IMG/VR virus record: IMGVR_UViG_3300033977_000098
Span: 1 to 64,000 of that record
Source of the DNA: a virus
Strand: one strand, 5' to 3'
Length of the DNA: 64,000 bases
A model generated the notes under the pieces. The model ran no database searches. It was not told where the DNA came from and worked only from the letters and a program-made list of their open reading frames with translations. This document shows, in pieces, positions 5,896 to 61,821 of this stretch (position 1 is its first letter; every line of letters begins with the position of its first letter). Both the position numbers and the translations under genes were made by a program.

Positions 5896-6642
5896 TCAAG
5901 CTGATATCTGGAAGAAATCCACCACCTTGCCTGCCGCGTTCGGGTAGGCTTCAAACTCGAAGTCCGAAATCAGGTAATTGTCCCGCTTCAGCGGGTTCGA
6001 CATCTTCGAGCACCGACACGTATAAAGATGAACCCCATTGGTCCCTTGATAGGGCTCCAGCAAGAACAGTTCGAATGTCGGGCCGTACCCTTGCAAATGG
6101 TTGTTGGCCGTCAGCGTCGTCCCAGAGCTTGAAGTGTAGACATAGCTGATGAGGACAGCGGCTCCAGCGTCGCCAGAATAGAACGTGTATGTCCCCGTGG
6201 ACGTGCTGACCGTGTATTGGCCCGCAGCGGTGAGGCTCGACACGCGCACGAGCGGTTGCCCCGTGCTGGCGTACTGTACCCCTAGGTCCTCGCTGTAAGT
6301 GGCATGGTTAGTGACCTGGATAGTATATGGTCCCGGGCTGGTCGGCACAGGCTGCGATTCTTGCGGTTGCACAATGCTGATGCCCGTAACCGTCGTCTCG
6401 GCGTAGAAGAGTGCATTGTAGATGTTGATTTCGATGTTCGCGAAGGCCGCCTTGCCGCTGATCTTCATGTCCGAGGGAGCCACATCGTCCGGAAACTTGT
6501 TTTGCCCGTAGAGGGACTGGAGCTTCTGCGTGATCTCCAAGTCTACATTCTGAATCGTCCCGAAGCGCTGCGGCCAGGATGGTGAGCCCTGGTTGCCGCC
6601 GTTTGGGTTGCCATACATCCCGCCTACGCCGAATTGAAACAT
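5896..6642 (-). CDS. Major tail tube protein, copy 2
   Basis: FGTIQNVDLEIT..LYGQNKFP..KISGKA; position upstream of chaperones; GGAGGT SD. Confidence 0.8.
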   Translation of the reverse strand: MFQFGVGGMYGNPNGGNQGSPSWPQRFGTIQNVDLEITQKLQSLYGQNKFPDDVAPSDMKISGKAAFANIEINIYNALFYAETTVTGISIVQPQESQPVPTSPGPYTIQVTNHATYSEDLGVQYASTGQPLVRVSSLTAAGQYTVSTSTGTYTFYSGDAGAAVLISYVYTSSSGTTLTANNHLQGYGPTFELFLLEPYQGTNGVHLYTCRCSKMSNPLKRDNYLISDFEFEAYPNAAGKVVDFFQISA

Positions 6643-6660
6643 TGGATAATACCTCCGTGC

Positions 6661-7401
6661 TTATACAGAAATCTGATAGAAGTCGATCACCTTCCCGGCG
6701 GCATTCGGATATGCTTCAAACTCGAAGTCGGAGATGAGATAGTTGTCACGCTTCAACGGATTGCTCATCTTCGAGCAGCGGCAGGTGTAGAGGTGTACAC
6801 CGTTCGTGCCCTGATACGGCTCCAAGAGAAAAAGCTCGAAGGTGGGGCCATAGCCCTGGAGGTGGTTTAGCGCCGTCAGTGTGTTGCCCGAAGTCAGCGT
6901 ATAGCTGTAGGAGATGAACACTGGAAAGCCGCTGGACACGTCGGCCGAACTGAACGTGTAAGTCGCGCTGCTCACCGTGTACTGGCCTGCGGCGGGCGTA
7001 CCGCTGGGGAGGCGCACGAGCGGTTGGCCGGTCGTGCCGTTACGCACCCCGAGGTCCTCGCCGAAGGCCCCGCTGCCGGGCGGCGTGATCGTCACCGTGG
7101 AAGCGATGGCGTGACTTTCATCCGGGCTTACCGCCGTGATGCCGCTGGCGACCGTGTCCGCGTAGAAGAGTGCATTGTAGATGTTGATTTCGATGTTCGC
7201 GAAGGCCGCCTTGCCGCTGATCTTCATGTCCGAGGGAGCCACATCGTCGGGGAATTTGTTCTGCCCGTACAGCGAGACGAGTTTTTGGGTGATTTCGAGA
7301 TCGACGTTCTGGATGGTGCCGAAACGCTGCGGCCAACTGGGTGACCCGGCATTGCCGCCGTTAGGATTTCCGTACATTCCGCCCACGCCGAATTGAAAAA
7401 T
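6661..7401 (-). CDS. Major tail tube protein, copy 1 (probable ATT start)
   Basis: N- and C-terminal thirds nearly identical to copy 2; GGAGGT-8nt-ATT TTT CAA TTC aligns with GGAGGT-8nt-ATG TTT CAA TTC. Confidence 0.8.
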   Translation of the reverse strand: MFQFGVGGMYGNPNGGNAGSPSWPQRFGTIQNVDLEITQKLVSLYGQNKFPDDVAPSDMKISGKAAFANIEINIYNALFYADTVASGITAVSPDESHAIASTVTITPPGSGAFGEDLGVRNGTTGQPLVRLPSGTPAAGQYTVSSATYTFSSADVSSGFPVFISYSYTLTSGNTLTALNHLQGYGPTFELFLLEPYQGTNGVHLYTCRCSKMSNPLKRDNYLISDFEFEAYPNAAGKVIDFYQISV

Positions 7402-7469
7402 GGTCGTGTACCTCCGGCCTGTTGGCCAGCCGCGTTATTTACCGGACGATGGTGCGTCCAAGGGCAACG

Positions 7470-7640
7470 CTAGAAAGCAGAATTTGAGCCGTCAAGCGAT
7501 TTTTTTAAGGGTAGGCCGATTTCCTTGGCGAGCTTTTCGCGGAGTTGTTTGGCGAGTTGGATCTCAGTGAAATTCAATGCGCCGTGCGCGAGGGCGCTAT
7601 CGAGGGCAAGGATAATAACTTTCTTCTCGTCATCGGACAT
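7470..7640 (-). CDS. Small hypothetical protein (MSDDEKK...)
   Basis: 56-aa ORF whose ATG shares its A with the tRNA-Thr CCA. Confidence 0.4.
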   Translation of the reverse strand: MSDDEKKVIILALDSALAHGALNFTEIQLAKQLREKLAKEIGLPLKKSLDGSNSAF

Positions 7641-7715
7641 GGAGCCGCCGAGAGGACTCGAACCTCCAATTGCCAGTTTACGAGACTGGTCCTGTCGCCA
7701 CTGAGGCACGGCGGC
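7640..7715 (-). tRNA. tRNA-Thr(CGT)
   Basis: GCCGCCG/CGGCGGC acceptor stem, CCAGT-CT CGT AA-ACTGG anticodon arm, GGTTCGAGTCC T-arm, encoded CCA. Confidence 0.92.
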
Positions 7716-7800
7716 TGGCGGAGGATAGAGGAGTCGAACCCCACGGTGTTACCCGCCCTGGTTTTCAGGACCAGTTGCCGCCCGCGCAGCAGTATCCTCC
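7716..7800 (-). tRNA. Non-canonical 8/4 tRNA-Ser(TGA), allo-tRNA-like
   Basis: 8-bp GGAGGATA/TATCCTCC acceptor stem + GCCA; 4-bp T-stem; 5-6-bp D-stem with tetraloop; long variable arm; anticodon loop CC TGA AA. Confidence 0.85.
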
Positions 7801-7864
7801 GGGTGTCGTGCGTTGGCGTCTCAGCCAAGGGTGCGTTTCGCCGCGTTGTATTAAATTGCAAGGT

Positions 7865-7937
7865 TGGTGAAGGGCCGTGGAGGGTTGCCGAGAGCGTCGC
7901 CGCTGAGCCAAGTTCAGCGGCAAGGCCACGGCCCTTC
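7865..7937 (-). ncRNA. CCA-ending tRNA-like structured RNA
   Basis: 12-bp GAAGGGCCGTGG/CCACGGCCCTTC followed by ACCA; inner 10-bp hairpin with a 7-nt loop. Confidence 0.55.
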
Positions 7938-8110
7938 ATATCGCGCACTCTCAACCTCTGAATGAATTCTTTCCTCTATAGCCTTTAGCACCAGTGCGTC
8001 GATCCAATCGCGGCTAAAGAAGTGCTTGGCTGAAACCGCACACCATCGCCACAACAATATCGGCAATGGCTCGTCACGATAAATCGCCGTTCGTTCTATT
8101 GCTTCCATAC

Positions 8111-8581
8111 TCATATCGCGCACATGACGTGGACTTCCGCCTCCAAAGCGCATTGCTGGTCGAGTACGCCCGGCTGCATGTTGACCTCGCCGTCGATCCA
8201 GGCGTTCACCACGCCTGCGACTCCCAACGTTTGCGGTTGGCCAGGAGGCGTGCCCAAGAGCGCCGCCTGAATGGCCTGCCAGCATTGATTGAGTAAAGTC
8301 TGCGGAGCGGTAGGGTTAGTGGGGCTGACATTCGCGTCGGCCCGTGTGTACACCAGAGCCAGAAGCCGCAGCGTGTAGCGCGGCGCACCCCAGGCTTGGT
8401 TTTGCTCAACCCGGCCCCCGAAAGGCAGCAGAAAGAAAGCTGGCTGCTCGGCCGGCGTGATGTTCGCCCAAATCCGCGCGTGGCGGCTGAACAGTTTGAA
8501 CTGTCCGGGCACTGCCGTAGTGATCGCTGACTTCAACAGCGAAAACAGCGTCGATTCCACAAGTTCGGGATTGAAGGCCAT
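8111..8581 (-). CDS. Tail terminator/completion protein
   Basis: QPAFFL, QTLG..GVVNAWIDG motifs; neck-region synteny. Confidence 0.75.
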   Translation of the reverse strand: MAFNPELVESTLFSLLKSAITTAVPGQFKLFSRHARIWANITPAEQPAFFLLPFGGRVEQNQAWGAPRYTLRLLALVYTRADANVSPTNPTAPQTLLNQCWQAIQAALLGTPPGQPQTLGVAGVVNAWIDGEVNMQPGVLDQQCALEAEVHVMCAI

Positions 8582-43197: not shown

Positions 43198-43420
43198 ACT
43201 CTCAGATTTCAGTTCTTTTTCTCAGCGAAAGCGCAAGGAAGGCCGTCCTAGCACGGTGGGCCAAGTACAACGCTAAGACGGCCTGAGCCTTGCGTTTGCT
43301 CTTGACTGGTGGGGACCGACAGTGTAGATTACACACGTGGGACGTTGTACTCGTCATAACGTCTCGATTCGACCGCCAGCGAATCCGCCTGATAAACGAC
43401 ATTCGCTGGCGGTTGTGTTT

Positions 43421-51563: not shown

Positions 51564-52299
51564 ATTCCTGCTAAAGTTTTGGTGGCCGCCTAGCCCGGCC
51601 AGGCGACAAACGGGAACCCTACCCGCTGGCGGCTACTCCCCTTTAAGGGCATCGCTGAGGGAGCGATGGCCTCTTCTGATTTCTGGCGAGACCTTGCCAA
51701 AGAATTTCGAGCCATACTAGGCTCCGAAACGCTTCAGGCTCATTGGGAATGTGACGCTGAAACCAATGAATACAAATCCAAACCACGTCCTCCAAAGTGG
51801 CAGTAGTCGCCTTCAGTTTTCCCCTGTTTCCCCCATTCCTCCCCCATTTTCCCCCCAATAAACCCCGATAGACACGCCCTATTTTAAGGCAGTATTTTGA
51901 ATGCGTTGCGGTGGAAGCCTACCCGCAGAAAGCAGAAAGGCCAGCGAAACGATTCTTGAGGCGCGTTTCGCTGGCCCTCTGAGAACTTGGGCCTAGCAGG
52001 TTCGCCGGGAACGCCCGCAAAGCAACTCCCGGAGAGTTCGAGTCGCTCGCCTGGCAGCGAGCGTCACACTCTTTGTGCTGACAAACACTAGAGTAGCACG
52101 GGGGTGTGTCAAATGCAACTCTGGATTTGGCATCTGCATGTCGCCCCACGAACAATTCGACCTATGGTGAATTAGGCCATCGAAAAGAGAGGCAATTTGA
52201 ACTTGGTACTGAAAAGAAAATCTTTACAGAATCAGAATTTGAAAAACTGCCATCAACAAAAGATCAGACCCAGATAAGCTCTCATACGGAGCCCGTCGA

Positions 52300-60986: not shown

Positions 60987-61821
60987 TGTAGCGGCGCTCG
61001 ATGAGCGCCGACGGCGGTCGTAGACCGCCGCTACAGAGGTCGCTCTTCGCTCGCCAATTCGCCGATGGCGATCAGAGCCGCCGACCTCTCCCGAATCGGC
61101 GCCGCTTTCACCTCGAGGGCGAGGCCGGGGAACTGTCCGTCCAGTTTTTCGACGTCGGTCCGCTTCAGGACTTTGCGCTTTTTAGCCAAGGCACGCCTCT
61201 CCTCTGCCTGTGGTCCGTCGCGTTCCGCTTTGAGCCTTGCGAGCTCTCTTGCGCTCCACCTCTTCCGCGGCGAGGGCCTCTAACCTCCGCCGCAAGCGGG
61301 CCTCCCGCTGGCGCACCCAACGCCGGCAGCGATAACTCGATACCAAACTTTCCGCCACCGGAACGTTGTAGCGGCCCTCGAGGCGGCTGGCGATCGCCAG
61401 CGCCGTAACGCCCTGCTCGAACCACGCATTCACCTGGGCCGCGAGACCCGGAAAGCGCTGGTCGAGTTTTTCAATCAACGTCAACGGTTCTCTGCCCATT
61501 CAGCCCTCTAAGCGGCGCTCTCGGAGCGCCGACGGCGGTCATAGCCCAACGCTGTCCAAATTAGAGATCGATCATCACGATGATCTGGGCTTCGCCCTCT
61601 GCTGTGCGGAAGGGCTCTGCCCTTCCGGCCTAACTCCCCCACTTGTTCCTGAATCTGCGTCGCGGGAAGGCATGGCCTTCCGGCGACGCAGATCGGGTTG
61701 GTGGGCGGGGTCGCCTGACGGAAAGGCGCAGCCTTTCCGCACAGCGGGGCGGCGAAGCCGCAGGTCATGGCCGACCGAGCGGAGCGGAATTTGGACAAGC
61801 CTGGTCATAGACCGCCGCCAC
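60987..61821. repeat. REP-like palindromic elements
   Basis: TGTAGCGGCG..CGGCGGTCGTAGACCGCCGCTACA at 60987 with variants near 61511 and 61803; GGAAGG..CCTTCC hairpins at 61600-61760. Confidence 0.65.
61182..61499 (-). CDS. DUF3486-like paralog (short)
   Basis: IEKLDQRFPGL..QV..WF..G.T. Confidence 0.6.
   Translation of the reverse strand: MGREPLTLIEKLDQRFPGLAAQVNAWFEQGVTALAIASRLEGRYNVPVAESLVSSYRCRRWVRQREARLRRRLEALAAEEVERKRARKAQSGTRRTTGRGEACLG

Follow-up and report, generated by a model that had tools for sequence, protein, structure and literature searches.

A hairpin resembling a tRNA acceptor end, encoded upstream of two tRNA genes in the tail operon of an uncultured peat phage: a possible cis-acting processing signal

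The tRNA cluster of phage T4 specifies small stable RNAs (species 1 and 2, rnaC/rnaD) which are not tRNAs and which are co-transcribed and co-processed with them. A stable 3' hairpin protects the message that lies upstream of it. Bacterial RNase P cleaves acceptor/T-stem model hairpins that end in RCCA, together with phage M3 RNA, C4 antisense RNA and pre-4.5S RNA; the RCCA is read by the P15 loop of type-A RNase P RNA, and replacement of the T-loop by a tetraloop in model substrates lowers the efficiency of RNase P and shifts the cut (PMC11143913). In plant mitochondria, t-elements and acceptor-stem-like stem-loops set the ends of mRNAs, in some cases inside reading frames (Forner et al. 2007, PMC1920247).

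Here we describe a candidate hairpin RNA of 73 nt (7865-7937, minus strand) from an uncultured peat phage, which we compared with these systems. The window is the whole stretch of DNA that was analysed, that is, the first 64,000 nucleotides of an IMG/VR virus contig (IMGVR_UViG_3300033977_000098); the phage genome measures 74.6 kb. Since the genes in this part of the genome all lie on the minus strand, the element must be read as the reverse complement. The hairpin is real and unusual, and a role in tRNA processing is plausible for it. The reading that we favour, at somewhat short of an even chance, is that it may be an acceptor-end look-alike which works in cis, signalling processing and protecting an end. 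Its parts are as follows.

7865-7937, minus strand: whole element, with an outer stem of 12 bp, a branched interior of 45 nt and, at the end, A-CCA
7926-7938, minus strand: 5' arm of the outer stem (G7937-G7926) plus U7938; perfect 13-nt inverted repeat
7897-7923, minus strand: inner 10-bp hairpin, arms 7923-7914 and 7906-7897, with one G-U pair
7881-7896, minus strand: 16-nt unpaired 3' linker, CGCUCUCGGCAACCCU, which contains CGGCAA
7869-7880, minus strand: 3' arm of the outer stem, CCACGGCCCUUC, pairing perfectly with 7937-7926
7865-7868, minus strand: A-CCA tail, in which CCA (7867-7865) comes after a discriminator-like A7868, from the sequence

The original prediction described a perfect 12-bp helix followed directly by ACCA, 73 nt overall, inside which sits a 10-bp hairpin whose loop has 7 nt; all of this is present on the minus strand. 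The loop reads ACUUGGC (7913-7907). Twelve base pairs is indeed the combined length of the acceptor and T stems of a tRNA. The helix is continuous, opens with G7937-C7869 in the place of G+1:C+72 and ends in a 3' A-CCA, as in a minihelix; it also contains a 7-bp acceptor-type stem with discriminator and CCA (GAAGGGC/GCCCUUC, A, CCA). Position -1 of a pre-tRNA is represented here by U7938. Because this base is able to pair with A7868, the inverted repeat is really 13 bp long and the CCA is the sole overhang. Between the outer stem of 12-13 bp and the inner one of 10 bp lies an asymmetric 2-nt/16-nt internal loop. An alternative pairing of TTGCCG with CGGCAA had also been proposed; it exists (in the RNA, UUGCCG of the inner hairpin with CGGCAA of the linker) but is minor, having a folding energy of -38.5 as against -41.9 kcal/mol (3.4 worse) and an occupancy of about 0.4%.

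The fold is clearly more than chance. The element has a minimum free energy of -41.9 kcal/mol with a z-score of -5.9, and none of 200 shuffled sequences folded equally well. Among 73-nt loci across both strands of the whole 74.6-kb genome (37,282 windows of that length; mean -19.0, sd 5.8) it ranks second in stability, and the pair probabilities of its stem stay at about 1.0 within a 310-nt context. The interior taken alone reaches a z-score of only about -2.1. The most stable 73-nt fold of the genome (61637-61709, plus strand, -51.8 kcal/mol) has an imperfect inverted repeat of 19 nt (61653-61693) at its core. The flanks of the element fold no better than shuffled sequences or coding controls, which makes it a stand-alone hairpin rather than a portion of a larger RNA. 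Folding is equally good for the two DNA strands (z-scores of -5.94 and -5.98); the choice of strand therefore rests on gene orientation and the CCA only, thermodynamics having no preference.

The weight of the CCA depends upon the frame of reference. Genome-wide, eight perfect hairpins with stems of at least 11 bp were located, and this element is the one of the eight that is directly followed by CCA. For perfect stems of at least 12 bp the average is 0.25 per following trinucleotide, and 15 of the 64 trinucleotides have at least one; a stem followed by NCCA becomes common once G-U pairs are allowed. The chance of finding CCA is about 0.22 genome-wide, whereas that of NCCA is about 0.03 (2/64, two registers), given a strong hairpin in line upstream of tRNAs. 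The tail is thus not significant across the genome, and its place in line with the tRNAs makes it evidence that is only suggestive.

Searches for known RNA classes returned nothing at the element itself. The absence of a T- or D-arm, part of the original prediction, was borne out on the element strand: ARAGORN was empty there in the default, -ps, -ps70, -mt and -mt -ps80 modes, and the Rfam tRNA model was empty at E<=10 in a 1-kb search. Whereas a 7-nt anticodon loop of a tRNA has U33 and a purine at position 37, the loop ACUUGGC carries C at the place equivalent to 33. A minihelix closed by a T-loop was likewise rejected; the 12-bp helix is closed by the 45-nt interior with its nested hairpin, and there is no GTTCRANYC motif. 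No family of Rfam 15 matched the element, either at the gathering thresholds or at E<=10. The plant-mitochondrial t-element motif GGTTCRANYCC is absent from 7865-7938. A SECIS element was dismissed because the UGA lies inside a hairpin arm instead of before it and the anticodon of the neighbouring tRNA is that of Ser. The tail of the element, ACCAACCUUGC, has no U-tract and a terminator scan was empty at this position, so it is not a canonical intrinsic terminator. The phage's own terminator-like stem-loops (43372-43413, plus strand, and 51939-51976) are intergenic and compact, with perfect 13-bp stems and U-rich tails.

The surroundings of the element comprise the following features.

7387-8110, minus strand: cassette of about 724 nt, flanked on one side by the 156-aa gene (8581-8111) and on the other by the first of the phrog_8234 tail genes (7386-6661)
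7914-8114, minus strand: ORF1, 66 aa, doubtful as a coding gene; it begins in an ATGA overlap with the stop codon of the 156-aa gene and terminates within the element
7936-7948, minus strand: direct repeat of 13 nt, GTGCGCGATATGA, second of two copies; the 13-bp stem opens with the last three bases of this copy
7801-7864, minus strand: 64-nt spacer to tRNA-Ser, with no significant structure (z -0.6), from the sequence
7716-7800, minus strand: tRNA-Ser(UGA), CCA encoded, with an unusual 8/4-like shape (ARAGORN)
7640-7715, minus strand: tRNA-Thr(CGU), CCA encoded, with zero spacer after tRNA-Ser (ARAGORN; Rfam RF00005, 58.4 bits)
7470-7640, minus strand: ORF2, 56 aa, codon score 0.396

The neighbourhood is a siphovirus-type late operon on the minus strand. 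A tail-completion-like gene (9115-8621) is followed by the 156-aa gene, ORF1 and the element; after the spacer come tRNA-Ser, tRNA-Thr, ORF2, two phrog_8234 tail-tube-like paralogs and the tape measure gene. The two paralogs stand in tandem (5896-7386, minus strand), and the same duplication is seen in the relative L002 (3986-4720 and 4745-5734). As predicted, 64 nt separate the 3' end of the element from tRNA-Ser, with tRNA-Thr adjoining it on the same strand. These two are the only tRNA genes in the genome. The spacer holds an A/U-rich tract, AAUUUAAUACAA, at 7857-7846, and no promoter or terminator consensus was located in its 64 nt.

The tRNA-Ser is atypical, with an 8-bp acceptor stem and an anticodon loop, CCUGAAA, which has C at position 33. 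With the Rfam tRNA-Sec model it scored 40.6 bits, under the cut-off of 47. A C at the second loop position is common to this anticodon loop and to the 7-nt loop of the element.

The two small reading frames of the cassette differ in codon score. ORF1 scored -0.145, whereas twelve of the 13 structural genes that were scored lie at 0.26-0.61; its GC3 is 0.51, and it may be non-coding; its UGA stop (7916-7914) lies inside the 5' arm of the inner hairpin. ORF2 looks coding, judging from its codon usage. The A of the ORF2 start codon, ATG (7638-7640), is at the same time the last base of the CCA of tRNA-Thr, and excision of the tRNA would thus leave the ORF2 message leaderless or 5'-truncated.

Relatives of the phage were reached via a tail protein and the 156-aa protein (L002-L012). 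The tail module proved to be common to seven viral contigs, one metagenome contig and three prophages in metagenome-assembled genomes (MAGs) of Acidobacteriota or Binatia. In these relatives the homolog of the 156-aa gene is followed by a gap of 13-113 nt and then by the tube gene; the tRNAs, a conserved strong hairpin and the cassette are absent from all of them at the junction. Since the relatives lack the cassette, the element belongs to an inserted segment of about 724 nt, holding the doubtful ORF1, the hairpin, the two tRNAs and the small ORF2, and not to the ancestral operon.

No second copy of the element emerged from the wider searches. BLASTN of the locus against GenBank phages matched the tRNA parts alone. 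An IMG/VR scan with both stem arms, a free interior and a free tail gave no matches, and neither did the IMG/VR scans for the inner hairpin and for a zero-spacer Ser/Thr junction. ORF1 and ORF2 have no relatives in IMG/VR or in an index of 5.8 billion proteins, ORF1 matching only itself, and no ORF2 homolog was recovered by either word-indexed search or exhaustive HMMER. A single-sequence covariance model of the element was run against 3 + 151 Acidobacteriota genomes; its matches were at chance level (11 at E<=0.1 per genome versus about 15 expected), and in the 154 genomes they were heterogeneous, with neither tRNA neighbours nor a common tail. The best-looking of them (L013, 24 bits) was rejected as the core of a long REP/MITE-like inverted repeat with no CCA, which occupies 1470-1590 on the minus strand of G002:C2 in an intergenic position (GTCATCCTCAGCGAAGGGAAGGACC...GGGTCCTTCGCTTCGCTCAGGATGAC). 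The one sequencing run matched to the phage DNA is a DNA run from a peat metagenome; no variants were seen there at the element, which is covered only by its probable source contig. The element is therefore a singleton.

The base of the stem coincides with what looks like a recombination junction. The first copy of the direct repeat GTGCGCGATATGA (8123-8111) forms the end of the 156-aa gene, stop codon included; the copies are exact and stand 175 nt apart, and the final TGA of the second forms the base of the stem. A 68%-identical homolog of the 156-aa protein (P0005), encoded on a 96.6-kb contig that is absent from IMG/VR, likewise ends in ...CAI*. This suggests that the hairpin may once have directly followed the ...CAI* stop, and that the ORF1 segment was inserted later.

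Such a junction would suit a relic devoid of function: either what decay has left of a tRNA gene, or the 3' portion of a tRNA that gained an inverted copy in the recombination that built the cassette. Decayed tRNAs are frequent in phage tRNA clusters, the repeat which marks the junction abuts the stem, and the 3' arm of the element reads like a T-stem strand, an acceptor strand and ACCA. We nevertheless rate this origin improbable: no tRNA model scores the element, even when relaxed, and decay would not yield a perfect 13-bp stem together with a 10-bp inner hairpin. Furthermore, a tRNA in which a T-loop is followed by the 3' arm of the element (at most 2 mismatches) was not found in 401 Acidobacteriota genomes, the recurrent matches not being tRNAs.

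The same arrangement, a perfect 13-bp inverted repeat adjoining a 13-nt direct repeat, could also be taken as a DNA-level site unrelated to RNA, that is, a protein-binding site, a recombination site or a cruciform, and the equal folding of the two strands would be in keeping with this. The element belongs to a late operon whose genes all run one way, and the integrase region, near 51.5 kb, is far from it, which makes this very unlikely indeed; no recombinase or transposase gene is adjacent, and an inner hairpin that is nested and off centre is characteristic of folded RNA or single-stranded DNA and not of double-stranded DNA operators. An integron attC site was rejected for lack of R' and R'' cores, and attP because of the distance from the integrase region. 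That region is marked by an int-alpA RNA motif (Rfam; 51583-51649, plus strand, 49.6 bits, above the gathering score), which implies a temperate lifestyle.

The host phylum is presumed to be Acidobacteriota, solely on the strength of prophage relatives with 37-48% tail-protein identity. The tRNA genes of two Acidobacteriota MAGs which carry related prophages (G001 and G002; L034-L063) were sampled in order to compare tRNA ends. CCA is encoded in all 33 of the sampled genes. A73 occurs in 19 of the 33, with U(-1) in 13 of those 19, and a Watson-Crick -1:73 pair is present in 19/33, well over the chance expectation of 25%; both phage tRNAs have a pairable -1:73 as well (C:G and A:U). Type-A RNase P RNA is encoded in both genomes. 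The ends of the element, U(-1)|G1…C72-A73-CCA, are those seen most often on pre-tRNAs of the presumed host phylum, and this context somewhat strengthens the tRNA-end reading. The tRNA genes of one MAG include dense arrays, one with 25 in the 18-kb locus L064 (G002:C12:182158-190367) and another with 10 in the 5.5-kb locus L066 (G002:C17:20658-22013), the latter sharing its contig with the prophage relative L011. Recurrent CCA-ended hairpins other than tRNAs were absent from the host tRNA arrays of G001 and G002.

For the cis-acting look-alike, we infer the transcription, each of the cleavage steps and the benefit from the observed structure, position, end sequence, cassette restriction and host-lineage context. 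The element would be transcribed with the tail operon as the first of three units, namely hairpin, 64 nt, tRNA-Ser, 0 nt, tRNA-Thr. Type-A RNase P and the 3'-trimming exonucleases would read its 12-bp helix, U(-1), G1-C72 and A73-CCA as they do on pre-tRNAs. RNase P would cut between U7938 and G7937 and at the 5' ends of the tRNAs, an endonuclease, perhaps of the RNase E type, would enter at the A/U-rich tract 7857-7846, and 3' exonucleases would trim back from there and halt at the stem-proximal A-CCA. As a result, the head/neck message would be severed from the tRNA precursor at a fixed point, and the stem with its CCA would persist as a free 73-nt RNA. If RNase P did not cut, the stem and CCA would instead stay attached to the upstream mRNA and cap its 3' end against nucleases.

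We favour this scheme for several reasons. The fold is exceptional and robust in context; the hairpin stands in line with the only two tRNAs of the genome, on the same strand and with array-like spacing; and it arrived with the tRNA cassette, the relatives lacking both. The combination of a 12-bp helix, U(-1), G1-C72, A73 and CCA agrees with the host tRNA-end pattern and with type-A RNase P, the element is unlike the U-tract terminators of the phage, and the published RNase P hairpin substrates and t-elements provide precedents. Against it, the element is a singleton with no comparative support, and its CCA could be due to chance. A 45-nt branched interior takes the place of the T-loop, the strands fold equally and the host is a presumed one. 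In addition, the cut at 7938/7937 would remove the stop of ORF1, if this is a real gene, and the mRNA upstream of it would then end in unstructured sequence.

A first rival is a generic RNA hairpin with a coincidental CCA, acting as a 3'-exonuclease barrier or stabiliser of the late mRNA upstream after excision of the tRNAs, as an RNase III-type site or as a pause or attenuator at the end of ORF1. We treat this as a live possibility, though on balance we doubt it. The element is very stable and specific to the cassette, its CCA is without genome-wide significance, its two stems together amount to about 22 bp and the ORF1 stop lies inside; given the unstructured flanks, a barrier would also be useful once RNase P has cut at tRNA-Ser. 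The four independent end features (U-1, G1-C72, A73 and CCA) match the host pre-tRNA consensus, however, and the lack of a U-tract sets the element apart from the terminators of the phage. Moreover, a simple barrier needs neither a 12-bp stem nor a nested hairpin.

The original prediction took the element for a tRNA mimic or decoy, possibly aminoacylated or titrating tRNA-directed defences. Carried furthest, such a reading would make it an 'armless' tRNA-shaped RNA of 73 nt which host tRNA-maturation enzymes would excise, to act in trans as a decoy or sponge for defence toxins that recognise the acceptor stem and CCA end, or as a substrate for CCA addition or charging, within a counter-defence cassette that includes the two tRNAs; in this complete form we find it very improbable. 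The idea that the ends imitate an acceptor end gains some support, since together they form the commonest host pre-tRNA end. Against an aminoacylated mimic or a decoy, there is no T-loop, D-loop or U33, the third pair is A3-U70 and not G3:U70, and no identity set or recognisable identity element is present. A broader version, in which an L-like 73-nt RNA would be charged, would be CCA-repaired or would soak up toxSAS, MenT-type nucleotidyltransferase or GNAT toxins, is unlikely as well, though it has points in its favour. The arms of 12 and 10 bp, the 7-nt loop and the tRNA-like end suit such a molecule, and just two phage tRNAs, one of them unusual, fit a counter-defence cassette better than codon supply. 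A decoy is conceivable because phages supply tRNAs against tRNA-targeting defences and because toxSAS toxins accept bare minihelices, as in the modification of one by FaRel2 (bioRxiv 10.1101/2024.07.05.602228). On the other hand, no homolog was found, and one copy that is not conserved makes a poor case for an RNA dedicated to this purpose; nor was any gene for defence or anti-defence recognised beside the element. Were it to act in trans on defences directed at CCA ends, it would represent a novel type of anti-defence RNA.

At present the element amounts to a well-characterised lead, a single unconserved sequence from a peat metagenome, and the preferred reading, the cis-acting look-alike, can be set against the systems described at the outset. 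The small stable RNAs of the T4 tRNA cluster are comparable as non-tRNA products of a phage tRNA array; they are longer (about 120-140 nt, as against 73 nt), and their phage is a lytic myovirus that infects Enterobacteria. Stabilising 3' stem-loops and RNase III sites of the T7 type resemble it as two-tier hairpins between phage cistrons; RNase III sites such as T7 R1.1 comprise some two helical turns of double-stranded RNA with an internal loop in between. These need no NCCA tail and no 12-bp register, both of which the element has, and the internal loop of RNase III sites is usually small and more symmetric, in contrast to the asymmetric 2-nt/16-nt loop found here.

The RNase P hairpin substrates (M3 of the phi80 type, C4 of P1/P7 and pre-4.5S) come closer. 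Like the element they are non-tRNA molecules with a helix of about 12 bp, G+1/C+72, RCCA and U(-1), and some of them are phage-encoded, as it is. They have no sequence relation to the element, which differs in standing in line with tRNAs inside a tail operon and in that its cleavage is only predicted; the model hairpins, furthermore, are closed by a 7-nt T-loop, which contacts the specificity domain of RNase P, and the element by its 45-nt branched interior. The t-elements, for their part, are tRNA-end look-alikes within mRNAs, and some of the RNase P/Z cuts that they direct lie within reading frames, as would be the case for ORF1. Canonical t-elements keep the GGTTCRANYCC motif of the T-arm, which the element is without (PMC1920247); they are organellar and mostly driven by RNase Z, with the CCA added, whereas that of the element is encoded. 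If it is processed like a tRNA, then this phage would punctuate its structural-gene transcript with a stripped-down acceptor-end mimic at the place where tRNA genes were inserted, and the element would give bacterial viruses an equivalent of the t-elements and of the tRNA punctuation known from organelles.
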